A DNA stretch of 41,565 nt from an uncultured archaeon (GTDB taxonomy: Archaea; Aenigmatarchaeota; Aenigmatarchaeia; Aenigmatarchaeales; Aenigmatarchaeaceae): NCBI GenBank assembly GCA_964651405.1, contig CAZYZB010000002.1, positions 1-41,565 on the forward strand, written 5' to 3'. How positions within the stretch are numbered: the stretch's first letter is position 1; each line of letters starts with the position of its first letter. Positions 3,414-40,922 of the stretch are shown here, piece by piece. The notes beneath the pieces were generated by a model that was given only the letters and a program-made list of their open reading frames with translations, made no database searches and had not been told where the DNA came from. The position numbers were made by a program, and so were the translations under genes.

Positions 3414-4724
3414 ATGAATTTAATAAATTTTGCCTTGAAAGAAGGTGCAGATGATGTTATTATTGAAAAAAATAATGGAGAAACTAAACAAGTTAAGTTT
3501 GCAAATAACAGCATAGCTGTTTCACAGAAATGGAAAATGGAAAGCTGCAAGATATTCATAGCTTGTAAGAAAAAAGTTATTACTACAGTTCTTTTTGATA
3601 TCTCTGAGGAAGCTTTGAAAAATTCTATAAGGAATCTGATCAAGAACGCAAAAATGCTCCAAGAAAATAAGAACTATCTTGGAATAGCTGAAGGTCCTTT
3701 CAGATACAAACAGATAGCAAAGTCATTTGACAAGAAGGTAATTAGTGCAGATACAACTGACATAGTCGAGTCAATGATTAATTCTGCTCTTGAGAATAGT
3801 AAGAATACTGCAGGAATTCTTTATACAAGCTATAGTGAAAGAAGCTTAGAGACTTCAAACAATGTTTCTGCTAGTGAGAAGGCAACTTCCATTCAATTGT
3901 CAATACGTGCCTTTAATGCAGATGATGAATCCGGCCATGCTGCATCATGCTCTCGGGTCTTAAGTAAAATAAAACCAGAAGAATTAGGGAGAAGGGCTGG
4001 TGAAATATCTAAACTTGCTAGGAATCCTGAGAAAGCTGAAGAAGGAAAGTTTGATATATTATTCGAGCCACTTGCCATAGCTAATCTATTGAACCTTACA
4101 AGCAGGTCTGCTTCTGCATTTATGGTAGACTCTGGATTCTCATTCCTTAAAGACAAGTTAAACAAGAAGATTGGAAGTCCAATTGTTAATTTAATTGATG
4201 ATGGTAGAAAGGAAAACGGTTATTTCTCTAGTGTGTTTGATGATGAAGGAGCTCCTACGCAAACAACGAGCATAATTGAAAAAGGAGTTCTAAAAAAATA
4301 TTTACACAACACTTCTACAGCAAAGAAGTACAAAACTAAGACCACTTCTAACGCAGGCTTAATTGCACCGTCTCCGACTAACACAATTCTGAAAGATGGA
4401 AAGATTACAAAAGAGAAGTTAATAAAAAAAATTGATAGCGGCGTATATGTTACTAATGTTTGGTACACTAGGTTTCAGAATTATTTGTCAGGCGATTTCT
4501 CAACCATACCGCGAGACGGCATATTTCTGATAAAGAATGGAGAACTTGTAAAGTCATTGAAAGGGATAAGAATTACTGATAATCTTCAAAGAATCTTAGA
4601 GAATTTTTCTGACTTGGCAAACAAACCTGAATGGATTATTTGGTGGGGTCTGGAAGGGCAGTCTCCGGTTCTTACACCGCATGTTCTAGTAAAGAATGTT
4701 AATATAACAATGCCAAAAATGTAG
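3414..4724 (+). CDS. pmbA: PmbA/TldE-like partner of TldD
   Basis: ATG at 3414 lies 2 nt after the tldD stop; the track ORF from 3363 adds 17 aa overlapping tldD. Paralogous TldD/PmbA-type sequence with no HExxGH motif seen. Confidence 0.7.
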   Translation: MNLINFALKEGADDVIIEKNNGETKQVKFANNSIAVSQKWKMESCKIFIACKKKVITTVLFDISEEALKNSIRNLIKNAKMLQENKNYLGIAEGPFRYKQIAKSFDKKVISADTTDIVESMINSALENSKNTAGILYTSYSERSLETSNNVSASEKATSIQLSIRAFNADDESGHAASCSRVLSKIKPEELGRRAGEISKLARNPEKAEEGKFDILFEPLAIANLLNLTSRSASAFMVDSGFSFLKDKLNKKIGSPIVNLIDDGRKENGYFSSVFDDEGAPTQTTSIIEKGVLKKYLHNTSTAKKYKTKTTSNAGLIAPSPTNTILKDGKITKEKLIKKIDSGVYVTNVWYTRFQNYLSGDFSTIPRDGIFLIKNGELVKSLKGIRITDNLQRILENFSDLANKPEWIIWWGLEGQSPVLTPHVLVKNVNITMPKM

Positions 4725-31491: not shown

Positions 31492-32955
31492 TTATTTAAT
31501 TTTATACTCTCTTCCATACTTAACAACTTTCGTTCTCGCAAACTTCCTGAACAACCCAGGATGCTCAGTATGAACGGGAAAGAGGACTTTCGGCTTTATT
31601 CTTTTCACAGCCTTGCCAAGCAGCGTCCCTGGCGCATGACCTGAGACATGCGTCCTGAACATCCTAATCTTAAAATGCCTTAGCCAATTATTAATTCTTT
31701 CTTGTTCGATCTCCATCTCAACATCAAATGGCTCGCACGTCGATTTAACGTAAAAAGCATTCCTCGGTTTTATATCTATTAGCTCTTTCAGATCAAAGTT
31801 CGAGCAGAACCAAACATACTTGCTAGGATCTTTACTAACGCATTCATGGTCAGAACAATTGTTAAGGAAAGGCTTTTCCCAATGCTCGTAATCCTGCTCC
31901 TTTATCCTTTGCGGAAAGTCCTTGCGTATGACTCCCCAGCCTTTTCTTATGCTATAGACACAAAGATTCTCGTCATCAATGCTTGGTATCTTGGCATCGT
32001 TGCACTCTTTCAAAAGACTTAACAAATAAGCCTGACGAGTACTGATAGCCAACTTCCTATCCAATGCCTTAGCTGCATTAAGAAACGACAGCATACGATC
32101 AGTATCACGTATCGGCCAGTCAGCAACTATAAGACCCTTGCACTTGCAACCAATCTTGGAAACCTTTTTCTCAACATCTTCTTCTTTCTGTCCCTTCCTC
32201 TCATTGATCCTCGTTCCCTCACTTATCATTGCGACAGGCTTTGACTCAGCGCACTTTTCAACGAACGTTTCACTCTCAGCGCCGCGGCGGCCGTGGAATC
32301 TTATATCACCAGTATAGACTATCGCTCCTTCTGAAGTATGAATAATAAAACCAGTCGCACCAGGCAATGAATGATCAACTGGATAAGGAATAATTTCCAA
32401 AGAATCAATTTTTATTTTATCTCCGAACTCAAAGTCGTTGACTTCCCTTTTAATAACGATATCATTATAGTGATACTGTTTAGTCTTTCTGCTGTATTCG
32501 CCTTGTTTGTTGACATAGATTTGAAAGTTTTCAACAATGTCAAGGAAATCCGTAAATCCTGACTGGGAAGTATTCTGGATTGCTTCAAGTATGAGTTTGG
32601 TCGGCTTTGAGCAGAATATTGGGACGTCATGTCGTATGTGATTTACATAAGCGGAATGGTCAGCGTGGGCATGTGATAAGAATATTCCTTGGATAGATGG
32701 CTCTGCTTCGAAGTCGCGTCCCATATGCTTTAGAAAATCTCTTCTATATAATCCTTTCAAATCAGGCAATAACCCGAACTCGATCAGGTCACCAATCACG
32801 TTGCACTTTCTCGGCTGCAAGAACTCTGAGAAGTATTGATTAGCTCGACTAAAGCTCATCCCAAAGTCAAGGAAAATATTCGTGCCGCGGTCTTCCAATA
32901 ATATTTTATTTCCACCAATCTCGTTGACGCCACCGTAGAAAGTAAGCGAAACCAT
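31492..32955 (-). CDS. Metallo-beta-lactamase fold / beta-CASP (RNase J-like) hydrolase
   Basis: 487 aa. FYGGVNEIGGNKILLED, the HxHxDH motif LSHAHADHS, and C-terminal RTHVSGHA. Sits 9 nt upstream of the MazG gene. Confidence 0.75.
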   Translation of the reverse strand: MVSLTFYGGVNEIGGNKILLEDRGTNIFLDFGMSFSRANQYFSEFLQPRKCNVIGDLIEFGLLPDLKGLYRRDFLKHMGRDFEAEPSIQGIFLSHAHADHSAYVNHIRHDVPIFCSKPTKLILEAIQNTSQSGFTDFLDIVENFQIYVNKQGEYSRKTKQYHYNDIVIKREVNDFEFGDKIKIDSLEIIPYPVDHSLPGATGFIIHTSEGAIVYTGDIRFHGRRGAESETFVEKCAESKPVAMISEGTRINERKGQKEEDVEKKVSKIGCKCKGLIVADWPIRDTDRMLSFLNAAKALDRKLAISTRQAYLLSLLKECNDAKIPSIDDENLCVYSIRKGWGVIRKDFPQRIKEQDYEHWEKPFLNNCSDHECVSKDPSKYVWFCSNFDLKELIDIKPRNAFYVKSTCEPFDVEMEIEQERINNWLRHFKIRMFRTHVSGHAPGTLLGKAVKRIKPKVLFPVHTEHPGLFRKFARTKVVKYGREYKIK

Positions 32956-33655: not shown

Positions 33656-33692
33656 GATAAAAACCTTTTATTGTAAATGATATTTAGAATTA
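33656..33692 (+). repeat. Cassette-site copy R0 (degenerate, with two short insertions)
   Basis: GATAAAAACCTTTTATTGTAAATGATATTTAGAATTA aligns to R7 (GATAAAGAATTGTAAAATTTAGAATTTAAG). Overlaps the stop of the Zn-ribbon gene exactly as R7 does. Confidence 0.5.
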
Positions 33693-33890
33693 CTTCAATT
33701 TTCTCTTTATCTTCTTTGAGAGCTGGTTTATCTCTTCGTCATCGAAATAACTCTTTCCGCAGTTTGAGCATTCCAGGCATTTCTGTCTTACTTTCACAGA
33801 ACCGGGGTTCTTTATCTCGAATGTAAAGTCCTTCTTCCTGCTGACAAGCTTAGTCGAACCGCATTCTATGCATCTGCTTAGTCTAGTCAT
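33690..33890 (-). CDS. YgiT/MqsA-type Zn-ribbon protein
   Basis: 66 codons from ATG 33888-33890; the track start at 33935 runs through the MBL relic. CIECGS...CSNCGKSYFDDEE. Paralog of 38308..38514. Confidence 0.55.
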   Translation of the reverse strand: MTRLSRCIECGSTKLVSRKKDFTFEIKNPGSVKVRQKCLECSNCGKSYFDDEEINQLSKKIKRKLK

Positions 33891-33897
33891 ACGCTCC

Positions 33898-33960
33898 CTA
33901 CAATAATATTTCATTACCGCCGACCTCGTTGACACCGCCGTAGAAAGTCAGAGACGTTAT
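33898..33960 (-). pseudogene. Relic 5' end of an MBL/beta-CASP gene (copy B)
   Basis: ATA-ACG-TCT... translates as ITSLTFYGGVNEVGGNEILL-stop, against the intact MVSLTFYGGVNEIGGNKILLED. The start codon is mutated to ATA. Confidence 0.8.
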
Positions 33961-33989
33961 AATAAAGAATTGTAAAAATCAGAATTTAA
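33961..33989 (+). repeat. Cassette-site copy R1
   Basis: AATAAAGAATTGTAAAAATCAGAATTTAA. Confidence 0.85.
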
Positions 33990-34082
33990 TGATTAGTAGT
34001 TTGTGGGCATAGGTTAGTTTACTGCCGTAGGCATTGAAAAGAGTTAAAAGACTTCTTAACCTAAAAATTAATAGGTGAAATT

Positions 34083-34661
34083 ATGGGTAAGATATTGGAA
34101 AAAATAAAAGAAACTTTTAAAAAGATTGCTGAATTTGATGCAAAATATCTTTCAATTTCGGAAAGTTCAAGCTCTTATGATTCACCATCTTATGATTCAT
34201 CAACAACTTATAGCCGCGGTGAGAAAATGACAAATATTGCTGAAATCATAGAATTACAAAGAAGAGGAGTTTACGCAATAAGCTCCAGTCCAGATGAAAT
34301 ACTCAGGGAATTACAAAGAAGAGAGCATACTGCATCAGGTTTCTTAACTGAAAAAGATTGTAGAACTTGTGGCTACATGAAATCGTATGGTGCGCTTTTT
34401 GGCAATAAAGTTCAGAAAAGTTGCGCCAGTTGTACTTACATGATAGAAGCGCGATCGAACGAATTATCCTTTGGATATAGTAAACCAAAACCTCAAATAC
34501 AGATAGATCCTGATGAATTAAAAAAAAGAATCGAAGCAGAAAGAAACTCGAGGTTAGAAAGCGTCTACCTTCTAGAAGACTTGGCTGATGTTGTAGGAGA
34601 TAAGGAGATATCTAGAAAAATCAGAGAAATAGCAAGTGCTGAAAGGCGGCTACGTCATTAG
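34083..34661 (+). CDS. Hypothetical protein (CxxC...CxxC)
   Basis: 192-aa ORF with a Ser-rich N-terminus and CRTCGY...CASCTY. Confidence 0.4.
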   Translation: MGKILEKIKETFKKIAEFDAKYLSISESSSSYDSPSYDSSTTYSRGEKMTNIAEIIELQRRGVYAISSSPDEILRELQRREHTASGFLTEKDCRTCGYMKSYGALFGNKVQKSCASCTYMIEARSNELSFGYSKPKPQIQIDPDELKKRIEAERNSRLESVYLLEDLADVVGDKEISRKIREIASAERRLRH

Positions 34662-34706
34662 TTCTCTAATTGCTCTATTCTCGATACATCAACTTTAAAT
34701 TTCATG

Positions 34707-34737
34707 TCAGGAAATCTTAGAAAAATCAGGATTTAAT
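34707..34737 (+). repeat. Cassette-site copy R2 (left half degenerate)
   Basis: TCAGGAAATCTTAGAAAAATCAGGATTTAAT, preceded by CATG as in full copies. Confidence 0.7.
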
Positions 34738-34739
34738 GT

Positions 34740-35102
34740 TTAAACATATGCACAAATATTTTTGTTCGTGTAATTGTTGAATATACATTTACAACCAGTA
34801 GGTGTTTTGGTTCGCATTGCACATGCTGGAGAAGCAGATGAGCATCTTGTGTTAATTTCATTATCAATCAACGCATATTTACTCATGTCAGTATTCTTAT
34901 TCACGCATGCTCCACAAGGTAAGTTAGGAGCATAAATACAATCAGAATTAACATTGCAACTAAAGTCTATCTTATAATATTCATTGTCGAGAAAATTATA
35001 AAGCTCGCCACAAGATTTGAACGTCAAAGTGTTTAGGTAAATATACAGAATCAAAATCAAAACAGCGATAACTGCAATTCCAGCAATGTAAAGTTTCTTC
35101 AT
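34740..35102 (-). CDS. Secreted/anchored Cys-rich small protein
   Basis: 120 aa. N-terminal hydrophobic helix, then about 12 Cys. The ATG abuts R3 and the stop is 3 nt from R2. Confidence 0.55.
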   Translation of the reverse strand: MKKLYIAGIAVIAVLILILYIYLNTLTFKSCGELYNFLDNEYYKIDFSCNVNSDCIYAPNLPCGACVNKNTDMSKYALIDNEINTRCSSASPACAMRTKTPTGCKCIFNNYTNKNICAYV

Positions 35103-35130
35103 AATAAAGAATTGTAAAAACTAAGATTTA
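35103..35130 (+). repeat. Cassette-site copy R3
   Basis: AATAAAGAATTGTAAAAACTAAGATTTA. Confidence 0.8.
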
Positions 35131-35164
35131 TTCATTTCAATGCATTCTTCATTACCAAAAAATA

Positions 35165-35350
35165 TCATCGCTTTCTTTTCGTAGTTTTACAGCAATAACA
35201 GCATTTCAATAAAACATATCCGTAAAATGCGAGTATTGCAGCAATTAATTCAATGATGATTGCTAAATCTGTACTAAATCCCCAGAAAGCTAGTCCATAT
35301 ATCACTATAATGACTGAAATCAAAATTGCAAGATAAAACGATATCTTCAT
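35165..35350 (-). CDS. Small two-helix membrane peptide with CCYCC tail
   Basis: 61 codons from ATG 35348-35350 (MKISFYLAIL...). The track's extra 13 aa are a translation of repeat R4. Confidence 0.5.
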   Translation of the reverse strand: MKISFYLAILISVIIVIYGLAFWGFSTDLAIIIELIAAILAFYGYVLLKCCYCCKTTKRKR

Positions 35351-35381
35351 GATAAAGAATATGGAAAAATCAAGATTTAAA
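35351..35381 (+). repeat. Cassette-site copy R4
   Basis: GATAAAGAATATGGAAAAATCAAGATTTAAA. Confidence 0.8.
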
Positions 35382-35445
35382 GTTCTCAAGTTGACGCATC
35401 TGTCGAAACGCTTAAATCTTTAATTGTTTTATTTTTATCAGTGTT

Positions 35446-36900
35446 TTGATGAGTGTAAGAGAGCATGCCGTAAAGATGGAAAAAAATCAGAAGGAAATAG
35501 GCGTTCTGTACAGTTCTCTACAGGGGAAGGCGAAAAGCGTAAGGGAGCAATACGAGAAGCTGGGAGAATTCATAAGGGTTCTGGATAGCATAGGGAATGT
35601 TATACCTGATGCAACAAAGTACACAGACCCCTTAGAAATACCCGCCGAAAGATTTTTACAGCAAAGTGCGTTTGTCGAGGAAACAAAGCAAAGGCTTTTG
35701 CAGATAGATGGCATCTACGAGACCGTTTTCAAAAACGGGAAGGACACTAGCACGAAGCAGTCTACAGCAAAAGTAGCAGAGCAGCCTGCGGCAAAAACAC
35801 CGAAACGTTCTACAGTGTATCTGGGGAAGGAGAAAAGATTCTTGGAGTTGGTCTCTAGCGGAATAAACACTCCAGATGACTTGATGAAAAATTTGGGAGT
35901 AAGCCAGTCGTATCTCAGCACCATTGGAACAAAACTTGCGGACGAAGGCAAGGTAAATAAAACAAGGCTTGAGGGGAAAAAACTTAGAATTGTATATTCT
36001 ATTCCAGGAAAAATAGGCGCGTCTGCAGCGACGTCCGTACCAACAGAAGAGCCGATGAAAATGTTTGACTATGAGTCATGGCTTAAAAGAATAGAAGGGG
36101 ATGTGGACTTGTCCAACCTTACGGTCATGGGAAGCGGTGGCATCAGGGTGTTGCTGGAAAGGCAGAACACTTCAGATATTGTAAAGATAAGCGAAGCTGC
36201 AAACATGCCCACCGAGAAAGTCGATAAGACGCTGAGGGCCTTCGAGCATGGCAATATTTTATCTGGGCAAGAACTGTCTGATTATGGTAAAAAACTTATC
36301 GGCGTTTACAAAAGCTTGGGCGTTCCAGAAAGAATTGCGTTACATTTGAGTAACAATGCCAAGACTGTGGAAACCATTTCCAGTCTGATGGGTTCAAAGC
36401 CAGAAGAGGTAATGAAAACCCTAGACCAGATGAAAGGTTGTGTGGTGCCCTTAGGCAATGGATACGCGTTTTCCCCGAAATTCTTCAAATTCGTGGACGA
36501 TGCCAGAGCTAAAATAAGAGAGAGTAACGTAAAAAGAAATTCGACGGTGACCGTGGAAGTCAAGGCGACGGCAGAAAGTCCTCAGAATCTTCTTATATTA
36601 AGTCTGGAGAAAAATTTTGGCACGCCCTCTATTAATAGATTGGATTTCAGAAAAAAAGCAGTATGGCAGATGTATGAGAACCTTGCTAAAAAATGCAGCC
36701 CCAAAGAATTGGTTGATCTGAATTCTGCTGTATCAAGAACAATGAAAGAGGAAATGAGCGTAAAGGATTATTACAAAACAATAGAACCATTAAGAAAGAA
36801 GCTTCTTCCAAGATTTTCAGGGAATAGTGACATACACTATAGTTCTAGAATTAATAGAAATATTTATTCTCACAGACAAAGAAGAAATTCTCATAGATGA
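35446..36900 (+). CDS. Large protein with three wHTH-like modules
   Basis: 484 aa (ATG at 35449). HTH-like segments: TPDDLMKNLGVSQSYLSTIGTKLADEGKV, TSDIVKISEAANMPTEKVDKTLRAFE and VETISSLMGSKPEEVMKTLDQM. Confidence 0.5.
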   Translation: MMSVREHAVKMEKNQKEIGVLYSSLQGKAKSVREQYEKLGEFIRVLDSIGNVIPDATKYTDPLEIPAERFLQQSAFVEETKQRLLQIDGIYETVFKNGKDTSTKQSTAKVAEQPAAKTPKRSTVYLGKEKRFLELVSSGINTPDDLMKNLGVSQSYLSTIGTKLADEGKVNKTRLEGKKLRIVYSIPGKIGASAATSVPTEEPMKMFDYESWLKRIEGDVDLSNLTVMGSGGIRVLLERQNTSDIVKISEAANMPTEKVDKTLRAFEHGNILSGQELSDYGKKLIGVYKSLGVPERIALHLSNNAKTVETISSLMGSKPEEVMKTLDQMKGCVVPLGNGYAFSPKFFKFVDDARAKIRESNVKRNSTVTVEVKATAESPQNLLILSLEKNFGTPSINRLDFRKKAVWQMYENLAKKCSPKELVDLNSAVSRTMKEEMSVKDYYKTIEPLRKKLLPRFSGNSDIHYSSRINRNIYSHRQRRNSHR

Positions 36901-37001
36901 TACCATCAGAAAGCAAGTAGTTCAATAATTCAGAGTTGCCTTAGATTCATGTTCTTCAGCATCTCGGATTTATTCATCATCTACAATCCAACCGCCTTCA
37001 C

Positions 37002-37066
37002 GTCCTGCAGAAGGATTTTATTTCCTCCGATTCATTAACTCCGCCGTAGAAAGTAAGCGAAACCAT
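37002..37066 (-). pseudogene. Relic 5' end of an MBL/beta-CASP gene (copy C, frameshifted)
   Basis: MVSLTFYGGVNE, then a 1-nt deletion. Restoring it gives IGGNKILLQD, against the intact IGGNKILLED. ATG 37064-37066 abuts R5. Confidence 0.8.
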
Positions 37067-37095
37067 GATAAAGAATTGTAAAGTCAAGATTTAAA
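37067..37095 (+). repeat. Cassette-site copy R5
   Basis: GATAAAGAATTGTAAAGTCAAGATTTAAA. Confidence 0.8.
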
Positions 37096-37133
37096 CAAAG
37101 AGAATTTAAAGATTTCTTTTTAATTGAATTAAT

Positions 37134-37733
37134 ATGAAAGTAAAAGACTTTTCAAAGGAAATAGTAAAAGCAGCTGTTAACAACGCTGAAGGCAAAACGT
37201 TTAGCCGTTCAAAAGTAGGATTGCTTGCAGTTGCTACTTCGAGTCTAAGCGGGCCATCTATAGAATTTTTCGGCAACCCAATATATCATCTGTCAGGTTT
37301 GCTGACTTACATACCTAACAGGATTTCAGACGTCTACAGCACCTATCAGTTGGCTAAACTGTCTGAAGATCCACGCTTCAAGGAGTACGGCCTTGAGAAA
37401 ATAGTGTATGAGGAAACGAGCTCGTTCTTACCGAAACAGCCTACTAGAAAAGATGTTCTTAACAAGAAGCATGTAGCCTTTAATATCTTAGGTGGAGTAA
37501 TCTCAACTGCTTTCCCTCCTGTAGGTTATGGACTTGTGGTTTCAACACCGTTTATTTATGAAAACAACACTACGTTTAAAAGATATCTAGAAAAATCATT
37601 TGAGATAGGCGATGATGTAAATCAGATGATAGAAAAAGGCCTAACAAAGGATGATATCAAATATTATTTGAATCTTCTGAATGATAGAAGAAAAATATGT
37701 AAAGAGTGTAAAGCTATTCATAAAAAAGATTGA
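37134..37733 (+). CDS. Hypothetical protein
   Basis: 199-aa ORF with no domain recognised. Confidence 0.4.
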   Translation: MKVKDFSKEIVKAAVNNAEGKTFSRSKVGLLAVATSSLSGPSIEFFGNPIYHLSGLLTYIPNRISDVYSTYQLAKLSEDPRFKEYGLEKIVYEETSSFLPKQPTRKDVLNKKHVAFNILGGVISTAFPPVGYGLVVSTPFIYENNTTFKRYLEKSFEIGDDVNQMIEKGLTKDDIKYYLNLLNDRRKICKECKAIHKKD

Positions 37734-37763
37734 ATATTTTTATTGAAACAATTAAAATTCTCA

Positions 37764-37786
37764 TTCAAGTTAACCAGGATTTAAGG
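37764..37786 (+). repeat. Cassette-site copy R6 (partial)
   Basis: ATTCAAGTTAACCAGGATTTAAGG. The right half is conserved. It ends 1 nt before the stop of the SNase gene. Confidence 0.6.
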
Positions 37787-37787
37787 T

Positions 37788-38282
37788 TTAACAGAATTTC
37801 CAAGCCCAATCTTCATTTGCAAATTCGCTAACATTACAAAATTCTTCATACACAGTAACATACTTATTAGAGATCATTTCAGCATTAAGATTTTTGCCGT
37901 TGCAATAAACAACCGCTACTATGCGACCGTAGCTTCCAGCAGTCTGTCCATCATCTTCATCAACTATCGCCTTTGATCCGATGGGGCATATGCTCAAAGC
38001 AATTTCTTTGGTTTCATTCCATCCTTCCTCATTATATTCAGGAGCATCGATCAAAGCAAGCCTTGTTGAAACGTTATCTACCTCCAAAGTATCTCCATCT
38101 ATAATTTCAGTGACGGTTCCGTTAAAGCATCTTGCAGTCCCTTTGCAAAACGAAGTTTCTGGACAACGACTAGGACCTCCTAAAACTTCGGTCCCATCTG
38201 GGCAAACCCATGTAAGTGGAGTAGTTTGCGAGCATCCAGCTACAAGAACTATTAAAATAATGATAGCAACTAAGAATTTCAT
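37788..38282 (-). CDS. Secreted lipoprotein-type staphylococcal-nuclease (SNase) homolog
   Basis: 164 aa. Lipobox-like LVAGCSQ, then IIDGDTLEV...TRLALIDAPE...GSYGRIVAVVY, the SNase pattern. The ATG abuts R7. Confidence 0.75.
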   Translation of the reverse strand: MKFLVAIIILIVLVAGCSQTTPLTWVCPDGTEVLGGPSRCPETSFCKGTARCFNGTVTEIIDGDTLEVDNVSTRLALIDAPEYNEEGWNETKEIALSICPIGSKAIVDEDDGQTAGSYGRIVAVVYCNGKNLNAEMISNKYVTVYEEFCNVSEFANEDWAWKFC

Positions 38283-38312
38283 GATAAAGAATTGTAAAAT
38301 TTAGAATTTAAG
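38283..38312 (+). repeat. Cassette-site copy R7
   Basis: GATAAAGAATTGTAAAATTTAGAATTTAAG. Overlaps the stop codon of 38308..38514. Confidence 0.8.
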
Positions 38313-38514
38313 ATTTTATTTTCCTGTCAATTTTCCTTGCCAAATCATCTGACTGCTCCTCGTCAAAGTACAACTCACCGCAGTTCTTGCACTCTATGCA
38401 TTTCTGATCTTTAATCTTTATCTTGTCAGGATTTCTTCTCTCGAATTCCAGATTCTTTTTAGCAGTCCTTAAATCTTTGCTCCCGCATTCTATGCACTTG
38501 CTCATTTTTTGCAT
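38308..38514 (-). CDS. YgiT/MqsA-type Zn-ribbon protein (antitoxin-like)
   Basis: 68 aa. CIECGS...CKNCGELYFDEEQ. Lies downstream of a toxin-like gene, in the MqsR/MqsA order. Confidence 0.6.
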   Translation of the reverse strand: MQKMSKCIECGSKDLRTAKKNLEFERRNPDKIKIKDQKCIECKNCGELYFDEEQSDDLARKIDRKIKS

Positions 38515-38528
38515 GTAAATCTCCTATT

Positions 38529-38852
38529 TTATAGTTGTCCATCTTCTTTTAAATTCTTTATAGCTTTTTTGTATTCGTCTATGTCAGGCTGCTGACCTGG
38601 GAATATTGTCTTGGCTATTATGTTGTCTTTCTCGTAGACGAACGGAACGGTAACCAGTTTCTTGTTCGTAACCTCGAATATGCATTTGAACGCTCCACAT
38701 TTGTCAGGAATTATTACGCCAAGCCCTTTCAGAGCAATCTCTGTAACATTCTTTCCGTTCTCAAAGCCACATCTGTCAAAAACGCCTTTCAAAATTGCTT
38801 TCTCTATAAAGTGTTTGGTGAATATGACATTCTTCTGGTTTCTATTATACAT
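38529..38852 (-). CDS. Putative toxin partner of the Zn-ribbon protein
   Basis: 107 aa. VIFTKHFIEKAILKG loosely resembles the DUF4258-type signature. Gene order is the main argument. Confidence 0.35.
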   Translation of the reverse strand: MYNRNQKNVIFTKHFIEKAILKGVFDRCGFENGKNVTEIALKGLGVIIPDKCGAFKCIFEVTNKKLVTVPFVYEKDNIIAKTIFPGQQPDIDEYKKAIKNLKEDGQL

Positions 38853-38925
38853 AACTTCATTTAATTTTTAAAATATATTTATGTCAAGTTTACCACTATA
38901 TGCAGTAACAAAAAGAGGTAGTAAG

Positions 38926-39612
38926 ATGATTAAAGCAATAATATTTGATTTGGATAACACTTTGATTGATTTCATGAGAATGAAAAGACTGAGTTGCGAA
39001 GCAGCCATGGACGCTATGATAAAGTCAGGATTGAAAATAGACAAGGAAAAAGGTCTAAAAATCATGTTTCAATTATATTCAGAATATGGTTTTGAATACC
39101 AAAAGATATTCCAAGTCTTCATGAAAAAAGTTCTGGGAAGAATAGATTATGGAATAATGGCTTCTGGCATAGTTGCTTATCGCAGAGTCAAAGAAGGTCT
39201 ACTATATCCTTATCCAAATGTTGTTCCTACGTTAAGCAAACTAAAGAAAAAATACAAGCTAGCTATCCTATCAGACGCACCAAAAATACAGGCGTGGATA
39301 AGATTAGCTGCAATGGGAATCCAAGACAAGTTTGACTTGGTAATAACATTTGACGAAACCATATCCAAGAAACCTAGCAAGAAGCCATTTCTATATCTTT
39401 TGAAAAAACTAAAACTGAAACCAGAAGAATGTGTGATGATAGGAGACTCTTTGAGAAGAGACATTGCTCCTGCCAAGCATTTAGGCTTCAAGACTGTTTT
39501 TGCAAAATATGGTGAAGACAAAGAGAAATCAAGAATTAAGCCTGACTATATAATAAATGATATAAAAGAGTTGTTAAAAATCCAGGATTTAAGTATTTTC
39601 AAAAAAACATAG
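38926..39612 (+). CDS. HAD-superfamily hydrolase
   Basis: ATG at 38926 (MIKAIIFDLDNTLIDF = motif I), LAILSDAP (motif II), K...MIGDSLRRDI (motifs III/IV). The 3' end contains repeat R8. Confidence 0.8.
   Translation: MIKAIIFDLDNTLIDFMRMKRLSCEAAMDAMIKSGLKIDKEKGLKIMFQLYSEYGFEYQKIFQVFMKKVLGRIDYGIMASGIVAYRRVKEGLLYPYPNVVPTLSKLKKKYKLAILSDAPKIQAWIRLAAMGIQDKFDLVITFDETISKKPSKKPFLYLLKKLKLKPEECVMIGDSLRRDIAPAKHLGFKTVFAKYGEDKEKSRIKPDYIINDIKELLKIQDLSIFKKT
39562..39593 (+). repeat. Cassette-site copy R8 (inside the HAD 3' end)
   Basis: ATAAAAGAGTTGTTAAAAATCCAGGATTTAAG, encoding ...IKELLKIQDL. Confidence 0.8.
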
Positions 39613-39666
39613 CTATTTAAATTATCAACTCAAACAATTCTTAATTAAAATAAGGAGAAAATAAAT

Positions 39667-39831
39667 ATGTCATTCGAAAATAGAGGTAGCTTTGATAGAG
39701 CTCCTAGAGAAATGCACAAAGCAGTTTGTTCTGAGTGTGGAAAGGAATGCGAAGTTCCATTCCAACCAACAGAAGGCAAGCCTGTCTTTTGTAGAGATTG
39801 TTTTGCTAAAAAAGCACCAAGAAGATTTTAG
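39667..39831 (+). CDS. CxxC-x17-CxxC zinc-ribbon small protein
   Basis: 54 aa, not in the ORF track: MSFENRGSFDRAPREMHKAVCSECGKECEVPFQPTEGKPVFCRDCFAKKAPRRF. AAGGAG lies 8 nt upstream. Confidence 0.55.
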   Translation: MSFENRGSFDRAPREMHKAVCSECGKECEVPFQPTEGKPVFCRDCFAKKAPRRF

Positions 39832-39905
39832 TAGTTTCTAAGCAATTAGATTACTATTTCATAGCATGAGCTATATCTTTTTCAAGTCAAAAAGAATCAT
39901 GTGAA

Positions 39906-39933
39906 ATAAAATACGAAAAAATCAGGATTTAAG
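39906..39933 (+). repeat. Cassette-site copy R9 (internal deletion in left half)
   Basis: ATAAAATACGAAAAAATCAGGATTTAAG. Confidence 0.7.
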
Positions 39934-39988
39934 ACTTACCACAAGGTTATATTTTCAAAGGTCAATTAATATCAATAAGGCTGAAAAT

Positions 39989-40555
39989 ATGAAATTTATT
40001 GATAAGAAAAATATCAAGTTGGACAAAGTGCCTACATTACTAGACAAATTTGTTGTAGACTTTATAAAAATTCTGCAAAAACACGCAAACTATGTCATAG
40101 TAAGCGGCTATGTGTCAATATTGTTTGGCAGGTCAAGGGCTACAGAGGATATAGACATTTTAGTTGAAAGAATGCCAAAAAAAAGATTTTATAACTTTTA
40201 TTCAAACTTGCAAAAAAGCGGTTATTGGTGTGTAAACATAGAAAACAAGGATGAAATTCTAAAAATATTGCTTGATGGCCTTGCAGTAAGACTTGCTAAA
40301 AAACCAAGAATAATTCCAAATGTCGAATTCAAATTCATAAAAAATGCCATTGAAAAAAATGCCATAAAAACAAGCATAAATGTAATCATGCCTTCTGGAA
40401 AAATAAAAATATCAAACATAGAACTGCAAATAGCATACAAAGAAAAAGTCCTGAAATCAGAAAAGGACCTGGAGGATGCAAGGCATTTGGAAGAGATTTT
40501 TAAGGATGAGATAAGTAATAAATTATTAGGAAAATACAGGAAGATGCTTAAATGA
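39989..40555 (+). CDS. Nucleotidyltransferase-fold (MNT-like) protein
   Basis: 188 aa. SGYVSILFGRSRATEDIDILV fits the GS-x(9-10)-DxD minimal nucleotidyltransferase motif. Confidence 0.5.
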   Translation: MKFIDKKNIKLDKVPTLLDKFVVDFIKILQKHANYVIVSGYVSILFGRSRATEDIDILVERMPKKRFYNFYSNLQKSGYWCVNIENKDEILKILLDGLAVRLAKKPRIIPNVEFKFIKNAIEKNAIKTSINVIMPSGKIKISNIELQIAYKEKVLKSEKDLEDARHLEEIFKDEISNKLLGKYRKMLK

Positions 40556-40713
40556 AAGTGTTTGATAAGGCAAAGAATAGAAAGGAAAGAATGGAATTTG
40601 TAAAAACTTGGGCAGTGTATGTTAGAACCCATTCTGACAGGGACTGGAGCAGACAGCAAAAAGTGGTTGTGGATTCGCAATTAAAGAATTTGATCAGCCC
40701 GAACAGGAAATAA
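40552..40713 (+). CDS. Small ORF coupled to the nucleotidyltransferase gene
   Basis: 53 codons. The ATG overlaps the upstream TGA (ATGA). No domain. Confidence 0.3.
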   Translation: MKVFDKAKNRKERMEFVKTWAVYVRTHSDRDWSRQQKVVVDSQLKNLISPNRK

Positions 40714-40744
40714 AATTCTTATAATTCAAAATGAAATAAACATT

Positions 40745-40922
40745 ATGATTAAAGCCATTATCTTCGACTTGGACAACACTTTGATCTCATGAAAAAAGGC
40801 TGAGCTGCGAAGCAGCCATGAAAGCCATGATTTCTGCTGGAAAGTAGACAAGGAAAAAGCGAGCGTCAAGCCGGATTACATCATAAACAATATAAAAGAA
40901 TTGTTAAAAATCAGGATTTAAG
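40745..40922 (+). pseudogene. Decayed second HAD hydrolase gene (5' ~115 bp + 3' ~55 bp, large internal deletion)
   Basis: MIKAIIFDLDNTLI..., then frameshifts, then ...KPDYIINNIKELLKIRI-stop. Aligns to both ends of 38926..39612 at roughly 80 percent identity by eye. Confidence 0.8.
40892..40922 (+). repeat. Cassette-site copy R10 (inside the HAD pseudogene 3' end)
   Basis: ATAAAAGAATTGTTAAAAATCAGGATTTAAG. Confidence 0.85.

Follow-up and report, generated by a model that had tools for sequence, protein, structure and literature searches.

A short repeat in an Aenigmatarchaeota genome is probably a compact promoter and gene-end module and a junction for cassette reassortment

The stretch of DNA analysed here, called the window in the following, is a complete contig (C2) of 41,565 nucleotides (nt) from the assembly of an uncultured archaeon (G000; 784 kb, 34% GC, 50 contigs, about 90% complete). 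Ten copies of a short repeat lie at positions 33961-40922, all on the + strand as read directly from the sequence; the core matches of the strong copies span 33974-40922. The genome was compared with 40 relatives (G numbers) and with loci from metagenomes and relatives (L numbers). Directly right of a CAT or TAT triplet the repeat begins with its left half, ATAAAGAATTGT (GATAAAGAATATGG in R4), and continues with the core, which is AAAAATCAGGATTTAAG or a variant. On the gene strand the 17-nt core reads CTTAAATCCTGATTTTT, and the consensus of the whole module is (A)TAACC-CTTAAATCCTGATTTTT-CTATATTCTTAGT-ATG, with ...TTTT-ACAATTCTTTATC-ATG as the variant found in the window. The core is enriched in the window, with 26 matches at up to three mismatches compared with 8.0 +/- 3.1 in shuffled sequences.

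Three of the copies abut minus-strand genes for proteins of 120, 61 and 164 amino acids (aa; Table 1). All three proteins begin with MK, followed by a hydrophobic anchor or a lipobox, and since the hydrophobic N termini start right behind MK, these ATGs are the true start codons. The remaining two repeat-abutting start positions (33958 and 37064) open relics of about 20 codons that derive from the 5' end of an MBL/beta-CASP gene, the intact copy of which lies at 31492-32955. A preliminary description of this DNA had placed a CAT directly left of the repeat at 35100-35102, 35348-35350, 37064-37066 and 38280-38282, and a mutated start at 33958-33960. Direct reading of the sequence confirmed the coordinates; the mutated triplet is TAT, which is ATA on the minus strand.

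Table 1. Repeat copies, TATA-like hexamers and repeat-abutting genes and relics in the window. The strand of a repeat is that of its gene-strand reading; hexamer positions are relative to the ATG.
Feature	Position	Strand	Remarks
R1	33961..33990	-	Spacer and core ATTAAATTCTGATTTTT; precedes MBL 5' relic with start mutated to ATA
R2	34708..34737	-	Full core between convergent genes; 2 nt past stop of 120-aa gene; no downstream gene
R3	35103..35133	-	Weakened core GAATAAATCTTAGTTTTT, 13-nt spacer, ATG
R4	35351..35382	-	Core TTTAAATCTTGATTTTT, 14-nt spacer, ATG
R5	37067..37096	-	In the window faces MBL relic only (putative promoter)
R6	37757..37785	-	Half-decayed core CCTTAAATCCTGGTTAA, 2 nt past SNase stop codon
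R7	38283..38312	-	CTTAAATTCTAAATTTT, then ACAATTCTTTATC, then ATG
R8	39564..39594	-	Core inside last codons of intact HAD hydrolase gene (38926-39612, +); moves with HAD in relatives
R9	39904..39933	-	Full orphan core; + strand genes on either side
R10	40893..40922	-	Full core, 19 nt past stop of NTP-transferase gene (40942 to contig end, -)
TATA-like hexamer, R1, R3, R7	-29..-24	-	
TATA-like hexamer, R5	-28..-23	-	
TATA-like hexamer, R4	-30..-25	-	14-nt spacer
120-aa Cys-rich protein	34740..35102	-	N-terminal membrane anchor; ATG 35100-35102 abuts R3
61-aa protein, two transmembrane segments	35165..35350	-	ATG 35348-35350 abuts R4
164-aa secreted SNase-fold nuclease	37788..38282	-	Pfam E 7e-7; lipobox LVAGC; ATG 38280-38282 abuts R7
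First MBL 5' relic	33901..33960	-	ATA, then TSLTFYGGVNEVGGNEILL, then stop; ~20 codons
Second MBL 5' relic	37001..37066	-	MVSLTFYGGVNE..., 22 codons; ATG 37064-37066; no gene behind

Read on the minus strand, the copies have the form [C/A/T]TTAAAT..GATTTTT-ACAATTCTTTAT[C/T]-ATG. A TATA-like box just upstream of the ATG had been described before and is indeed present as TTAAAT or ATAAAT, 24-31 nt before the ATG. The two genes chosen as comparators were also correct, with TTTATATA at -31..-24 of ATG 11714 and TTTAAATA at -30..-23 of ATG 12432. Because TTCAT and the 13-nt spacer are common to the five copies in the window, these are not independent draws, and it is loci elsewhere and further genomes that give independent support.

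For the promoter statistics 790 non-overlapping open reading frames (ORFs) were called in the genome, leaving out the contigs C37 and C40. A Shine-Dalgarno sequence (GGTGAT-like, -10..-4) precedes 263 of them and is absent from 527. TATA-like hexamers in the latter group begin at -31..-27, with 69 cases at -30, 72 at -29 and 54 at -28, the background being about 8; the same group has an excess of A at -11/-10 and of T (57%) at -1. Judged from this profile, the organism is predicted to express its genes mainly by leaderless transcription, with the box near -29. The repeat matches the profile: the box is at the modal position, -11/-10 is A-rich and a pyrimidine-purine step is found at -1/+1. The spacers ACAATTCTTTAT[C/T] and CCATATTCTTTATC contain no motif of the GGAG/GGTG type, and the bases at the step are C or T (-1) and A (+1).

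A TATA box at -29 of a leaderless gene is, however, the ordinary rule in this genome and no special trait of the repeat. The 13-nt left half is not peculiar to the repeat either, but resembles a general promoter-proximal element. Upstream of tRNA-Phe, TTTAAATA precedes ...AATTCTTTATC, and less strict, ATTCTT-like forms occur in front of other tRNA genes. The Zn-protein gene on the + strand (39667) is preceded by TTTAAATT...ACAATTCTTAAT, and the intact MBL gene of G015 reads CAT|GATAAAGAATTGTAAA (in a longer reading CAT|GATAAAGAATTGTAAATCCATC); this gene lacks the core, and its TATA box, TTTTATTG, is a different one. Each of the MBL orthologues, which come from eight genera, has a box near -30..-23 with a drifted sequence. 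An unbiased enrichment analysis of 8-mers in the promoter regions of the genome did not single out the core. Since fewer than 10 of the about 500 leaderless promoters carry it, the core represents a small promoter subfamily and not a general consensus.

Other copies of the core in the genome are located on C6 (three), C13 (four) and C23 (at least six), often with a CAT exactly 13 nt to the left; 7 of the 19 cores lie within 7 kb. Among the 40 relatives, the core is enriched only in some genera of one family (G011, 14 copies; G015, 16; G019, 19; G020, 12), again clustered on the same strand. The genus g10 has 2-5 copies and most other relatives 0-3, like the control with the reversed pattern. 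Exact matches to the repeat in public genomes came almost solely from archaeal metagenome-assembled genomes (MAGs), among them those of Aenigmatarchaeota. Bacteroidota matches to a 22-mer among public genome contigs were taken as chance or unrelated.

The distance between core and start codon was determined for a set of 90 copies (up to two mismatches) from G000 and 30 loci of relatives belonging to the genera g1, g10 and g11. In 30 of the 90 copies, distributed over the three genera, an ATG follows at offset 13, whereas no other offset was found more than six times (binomial P 7e-30). The consensus of this class is aaTAAcc CTTAAATCCTGATTTTT CTATATTtTTAGT ATG AAa AA. The genes behind these cores are mutually unrelated, and for 14 of the 30 the start codon is fixed by N-terminal transmembrane or signal segments of the product, behind which Cys-rich domains are frequent. 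Others are housekeeping genes (ABC ATPase, a Memo-like protein, an L41e-like basic peptide). The L41e-like ORF of G011 (L007 4509-4620) encodes 26 very basic residues (MAKRKRLTKKQKKKRRKKRRKKKKRR) exactly 13 nt past a perfect core; the module is therefore not confined to accessory genes. Altogether, core and spacer precede at least 25 unrelated ORFs in G000, G011, G015, G016, G017, G018, G019 and G020, and homologues of the SNase gene retain core, 12-13 nt spacer and ATG in the window, L057-L060, L062, L063 and L065. This conserved spacing before unrelated genes is the strongest evidence available that the element would position initiation at the ATG.

The upstream and downstream gene context was scored for 86 cores. 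In 65 cases the upstream gene is co-oriented with the core, and in 33 of these 65 its stop codon is one of the stops built into the element (at -12, -5 or +2). These are the TAA in TAACC, the TAA in CTTAAAT and the TGA in CCTGA, which cover all three frames. Most of the remaining co-oriented upstream genes end 25 nt or less from the core. In the window, the core of R7 contains the stop codon of the upstream Zn-ribbon gene (38308-38514). The core also has a T5 tract, and oligo-T tracts are an intrinsic termination signal in archaea. From these features the module looks like a combined gene-end and gene-start signal and is probably also a terminator. R2 is an orphan core and a candidate for a terminator. 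Cores homologous to R6 sit behind SNase genes in L002, L010 and L057-L063. R9 is the right boundary of a cassette for a 54-aa CxxC Zn-protein (39667-39831, +), with the same boundary in L057/L058, and R10 overlaps the 3' end of a HAD copy (40745-40920) that has an internal deletion.

Arrays were evaluated with 20 examples comprising 75 cores. All cores but one (74/75) are co-oriented, although a third of the ORFs within the arrays are antisense (73 sense, 34 antisense); core orientation is therefore not simply that of the genes. Close metagenomic relatives have the same cassettes (77-94% identity) in another order or with one cassette replaced, and the breakpoints lie in or beside repeat copies. 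The SNase gene is flanked by cores at the 5' and the 3' end in the window, L057/L058, L059, L060 and L062/L063; a 5' core is also present in L069, and L061 has no 5' sequence available for this flank. The SNase cassette occurs in at least five different combinations of neighbours: between Zn-ribbon and 199-aa genes in the window, between 61-aa and 199-aa genes in L057/L058, between another gene and HAD in L059, between Zn-ribbon and another gene in L060, and between another gene and MBL in L062/L063.

L058 and the window have four blocks in common (38926-39597, 37069-38310, 35098-35382 and 39577-39932; 77-94% nucleotide identity), which are permuted. Of the eight block ends, one is the start codon of HAD, and the other seven are 4 nt or less from the edge of a repeat. 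In the promoter region of the SNase gene of L058, CAT GATAAAGAATTG|GAAAAACTAGGATTTATTC ATTTCAATG, the spacer side is R7-like and the core side R3-like. The R3 core variant follows the 61-aa gene in L058 too, where it faces the SNase gene. Thus, the 61-aa gene has the weakened core at its 3' end in both, whereas the gene further downstream is not the same, and the crossover between L058 and the window lies within 16 common bases, ATAAAGAATTGTAAAA. In this one resolving comparison the core appears to move together with the 3' end of the gene before it, and the 13-nt half together with the gene behind it; the core that ends one cassette is therefore predicted to drive the next. The L058 equivalent of R5 is joined at the same nucleotide, the ATG, to an intact 52-aa Zn-ribbon gene and not to an MBL relic.

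L057 and L058 have flanks of 97.7-99.6% identity but differ in one replaced cassette (a 181-aa versus a 213-aa gene); one end of the replaced segment is at a core, the other just before a core present only in L057. That the two loci were obtained from different samples and still have near-identical flanks argues against assembly chimeras. L001 and L005 have in common a 153-aa antisense cassette (92% identity), the homology of which stops at the core edge GATTTAA|. Compared with G015, the window has about 5.9 kb extra between R1 and R9; G015 has a single predicted promoter after the MBL-relic/Zn-ribbon unit and before a 188-aa gene.

We consider it likely that the repeat is a lineage-specific, compact promoter and gene-end module of one Aenigmatarchaeota family that also serves as a junction for cassette reassortment. 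According to this model, CTTAAATC would be the TATA box at -30..-23 and the 13-nt spacer the promoter-proximal and initiator region. Transcription would be expected to start at the A of the ATG, giving an mRNA without a leader for which no Shine-Dalgarno sequence is needed. The same module would end the preceding co-oriented gene by stops in all three frames (TAA, TAA and TGA) and by the T5 terminator tract. With promoter and gene end combined in one module, each unit would thus be transcriptionally self-contained. Recurring as a direct repeat between small genes, the module is also the place at which related strains exchange, permute or replace cassettes. Only sense units would use it as promoter and antisense cassettes would carry their own. 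Since no dedicated recombinase accompanies the modules, recombination between the repeated modules would be the likeliest mechanism. The earlier proposal that the site brings its own archaeal TATA element and that the cargo is leaderless can be kept in part and, on strong comparative grounds, in its substance: the box is at the genome mode, a Shine-Dalgarno sequence is missing and the 13-nt spacing is conserved. It needs qualification in that the box follows the genome rule, many cores face convergent genes and, in the one comparison that resolves it, the left half stays with the downstream gene.

Several observations weigh against this model. As many as 34 of the 86 cores (about 40%), in the window R2, R6, R8, R9 and R10, face a convergent gene and cannot drive cargo. 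R2, R6 and R10 are found 2-19 nt past the stop of a co-oriented gene, and R8 constitutes the 3' terminus of the HAD coding sequence; R8 and R9 are explained neither as promoter nor as terminator. In addition, CCTGATTTTT downstream of the TATA box is conserved beyond the need of a basal promoter, while the genome profile is almost information-free at -22..-12. This extra conservation suggests a binding factor; a binding protein, termination or homogenisation through recombination may account for it. Sequence alone is the basis on which both promoter activity and terminator activity are predicted. The breakpoint nucleotide is not fixed: in L001/L005 and at one end of L057/L058 it is the TATA-side edge of the core, in L058/window it is inside ATAAAGAATTGTAAAA, and a similarity of about 30 nt common to all copies blurs the exact crossover point. 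That repeats of 17-30 bp recombine in this lineage is an assumption. Given the variable breakpoints and the 30 common nucleotides, the data fit recombination between repeats at least as well as a site-specific enzyme.

If the TATA-like box were unused, the minus-strand genes would be transcribed within longer operons or by read-through, and the repeat would be no more than a terminator or a conserved spacer between genes. Many cores are indeed located 0-25 nt from the stop of a co-oriented upstream gene, so that co-transcription in tandem is geometrically possible, and the SNase homologue of L002 has no core promoter and overlaps its upstream gene. Internal cistrons would, however, lack a ribosome-binding signal, since the spacer has no Shine-Dalgarno sequence in a genome with 263 genes that have one; a role as mere spacer does not explain the exact distance of 13 nt in 30 copies; and R4 and R5 have kept the full module with no co-oriented gene upstream. 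This explanation is highly improbable. A lineage-specific transcription factor with an operator across the TATA box (half-sites AAATC-N2-GATTT) would account for conservation beyond the box, for the short dyad in the core, for the cores before housekeeping genes such as the ABC ATPase and the L41e-like peptide and for the lack of an associated recombinase; the core would then define a regulon without any role in recombination, and the differences in gene order would be ordinary insertions and deletions. We regard this as unlikely, since an operator would have nothing to regulate at the cores facing convergent genes, and the almost uniform orientation of the array cores around a third of antisense genes, the crowding of 7 of the 19 genomic cores in 7 kb and the coincidence of breakpoints with repeat copies in several independent comparisons all speak against it. 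Moreover, the half-sites are 7 bp apart from centre to centre, which would be short for a dimeric winged helix-turn-helix regulator.

It is doubtful, in our view, that the repeat of about 30 bp is a dedicated attachment site of an integron-like recombinase, its TATA content being secondary or selected for cassette expression. Arrays in which direct repeats of one orientation mostly enclose single genes, sense or antisense, the same cassettes in differing orders and contexts among strains, and partial gene copies (MBL 5' end, HAD 3' end) at the junctions would fit such a site, as would a truncated tyrosine-recombinase gene beside the C6 cores and two integrases that flank one array in G015. The C6 gene (9482-10054, -; a truncated ORF of 190 aa) is the sole Phage_integrase-like match in G000 and, with 21.7 bits, below the cut-off. 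No Phage_integrase match was obtained in G010 and G011, both of which have arrays, and profile searches for Resolvase and IS110 gave no matches, including in these two genomes. TnpB (PF07282) has one good match on C5 of G000; weak, sub-threshold matches are present in G000 (two), G011 and G019 (one each), and none in G010. No recombinase family is common to the array-bearing genomes. Nor do the ten sites have a hairpin or inverted-repeat arms of the recombinase type: folding of the 131 nt of DNA surrounding each of the 10 sites gave z values of -1.36 to +1.76 and no recurrent stem that would resemble attC, local inverted repeats were not found at the sites in the window, and Rfam returned only a chance match to CRISPR-DR22 below threshold (E 0.62). 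The crossover position varies, and the fixed spacing of 13 nt together with the genome promoter rule means that promoter function is not incidental. With neither an associated recombinase nor an attC-like structure found, the status as a recombination site rests on the comparative breakpoints. A search of IMG/VR for a viral origin gave no exact match to the repeat pattern. MBL relics as att-type target duplications were considered and found unsupported, the intact MBL genes in the window and in G015 having no core; in the metagenome loci L061-L063, MBL is directly behind a core. An extension of the module model, which we put forward only tentatively, is a cassette system functionally analogous to integrons but built differently: a module of about 35 bp would stop all frames, terminate, restart leaderless at the next ATG and be the crossover for excision, capture and reshuffling, carried out by general machinery or by a recombinase of a new family.

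Promoters of leaderless mRNAs with a TATA box and a B recognition element (BRE) are known in archaea such as Sulfolobus, Haloferax and Nanoarchaeum. The module resembles them: its TATA box has its centre about 25-26 nt upstream of the start codon, the initiator at the A of the ATG is a pyrimidine-purine step, and a Shine-Dalgarno sequence is missing. Ordinary archaeal promoters have only TATA/BRE in common, whereas the module is near-identical over 17-35 nt, has 14-19 copies per genome, clusters in co-oriented arrays and is conserved in three genera. Integron cassettes are promoterless and are served by one Pc promoter, and the contrast drawn with them in the preliminary description is fair as a general rule. 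Here, every sense cassette starts with its own TATA module, a predicted promoter, in place of a single platform Pc. A third of the cassettes bounded by modules are antisense and have predicted promoters of their own (TTTAAAG at -28 of ATG 37134; a Shine-Dalgarno-led start at 39667). Also unlike in integrons, there is no IntI adjacent to the array (only the truncated C6 ORF in G000) and no attC hairpin with R''/L''/L'/R' boxes; attC is an imperfect hairpin of 55-140 nt, whereas the module has about 30 bp and is conserved in sequence, not in structure. Common to both, including the archaeal integrons (Ghaly et al. 2022, PMC9668308), are co-oriented short repeats with mostly single genes between them, a cargo of small secreted proteins, nucleases and toxin-antitoxin-like genes, and a cassette order that differs among related strains. 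Clusters of attC without IntI have been reported in two Aenigmatarchaeota MAGs of another order (Ghaly et al., PMC9668308).

Promoter reuse and "putative mobile promoters" have been described in prokaryotes (Matus-Garcia, Nijveen and van Passel 2012, PMC3575422). The module is like these in that a near-identical promoter sequence precedes non-homologous genes within and between related genomes; unlike these, it is fused at the start codon, ends the upstream gene, forms direct-repeat arrays, marks breakpoints and occurs in a DPANN archaeon. A description of the module was not found in a search of the full-text literature. The Correia elements of Neisseria and the enterobacterial REP/BIME elements are short dispersed boundary repeats that can give promoters or terminators and are substrates of rearrangement; they are palindromic or have inverted-repeat ends, and they have no fixed distance to start codons. 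The module has no palindromic or inverted-repeat structure and is located at a fixed distance from the ATG. It combines leaderless promoter, reused promoter and cassette array, that is, known kinds in a new combination.

DPANN archaea have tiny genomes and depend on hosts; little is understood of how their surface and defence genes vary, and few mechanisms of mobile elements are known for them. If true, a module of stop, terminator and leaderless promoter would explain how single genes are swapped between strains and expressed immediately, and also why the variable islands of this family are cut into small units. A gene placed in sense between two modules would be expressed at once, with neither a platform promoter nor a ribosome-binding site. 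The module offers a concrete sequence for work on promoters, terminators and protein binding and a marker with which islands of this type can be found in metagenomic data. Should a dedicated enzyme take part, cassettes would be captured here by a new kind of system; without one, the islands would be a clear natural example of promoters that provide portable homology for gene shuffling.

Downstream of the first MBL relic, a GGAG and the ATG of a Zn-ribbon gene (33690-33890) follow, and R1 is probably the promoter of a leadered mRNA for this gene (ATG at 33890). In G015 (L008 11694-11917) a Zn-ribbon gene (MqsA/Mut7-C-like) is joined in frame to the first 16 MBL codons (MVSLTFYGGVNEIGGN-MTRLSK...). 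In its counterpart in the window (33690-33960) the relic has no ATG (now ATA) and ends in a stop. Judging from this comparison, a promoter and 5' end would have been captured at 33690-33960, with the MBL relic now serving as a leader.

The seemingly empty cassette between R8 and R9 encodes, at 39667-39831 (+), the 54-aa protein with CxxC...CxxC (MSFENRGSFDRAPREMHKAVCSECGKECEVPFQPTEGKPVFCRDCF...) and has its own TATA box and Shine-Dalgarno sequence. Paralogues of this protein are found on C11 (23927-24135), C31 (1-205), C44 (4147-4285) and C23 (6859-6955), several of them at contig ends, and the family may break the assembly. All HAD hydrolase paralogues (38926-39612; 40745-40920; C23, about 3480-3525) terminate in a core and have the C terminus ...KELLKIRI*. 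The copy at 40745-40920 lacks about 495 internal nt; as the two copies in the window are only 75-80% identical, they do not represent a recent duplication.

The 190-aa ORF on C6, 450 nt from three cores (8265, 8606 and 9016), comprises the C-terminal half of a tyrosine recombinase (HSFRYARAT...) and a CxxC...CxxC zinc ribbon; the position of the catalytic Tyr seems altered (AALHVHLS). The two contigs left out of the promoter statistics, C37 (7.8 kb, 51% GC) and C40 (6.0 kb, 63% GC), are far in GC content from the remaining bin (32-36%) and are probably binning contaminants or rRNA-type regions. In L057 (3981-5150) and L058 (5137-6306) the HAD end of the array is flanked by a gene for a 389-aa protein with repeats of the form ...TPS..D......PS..TY..RFGSW..A...AGL, which we take to resemble repeats associated with homing endonucleases (HNH-type). 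At 37103-37134, a second TATA-like box (GAATTTAAAG) is present on the + strand, 10 nt past R5 and 28 nt before the ATG at 37134 of the 199-aa gene, so that two putative leaderless promoters would lie here back to back and divergent. In L001 and L009, too, the core has a similar additional TTTAAA box next to it (GACATTTAAAG), located towards the spacer when read in gene orientation.

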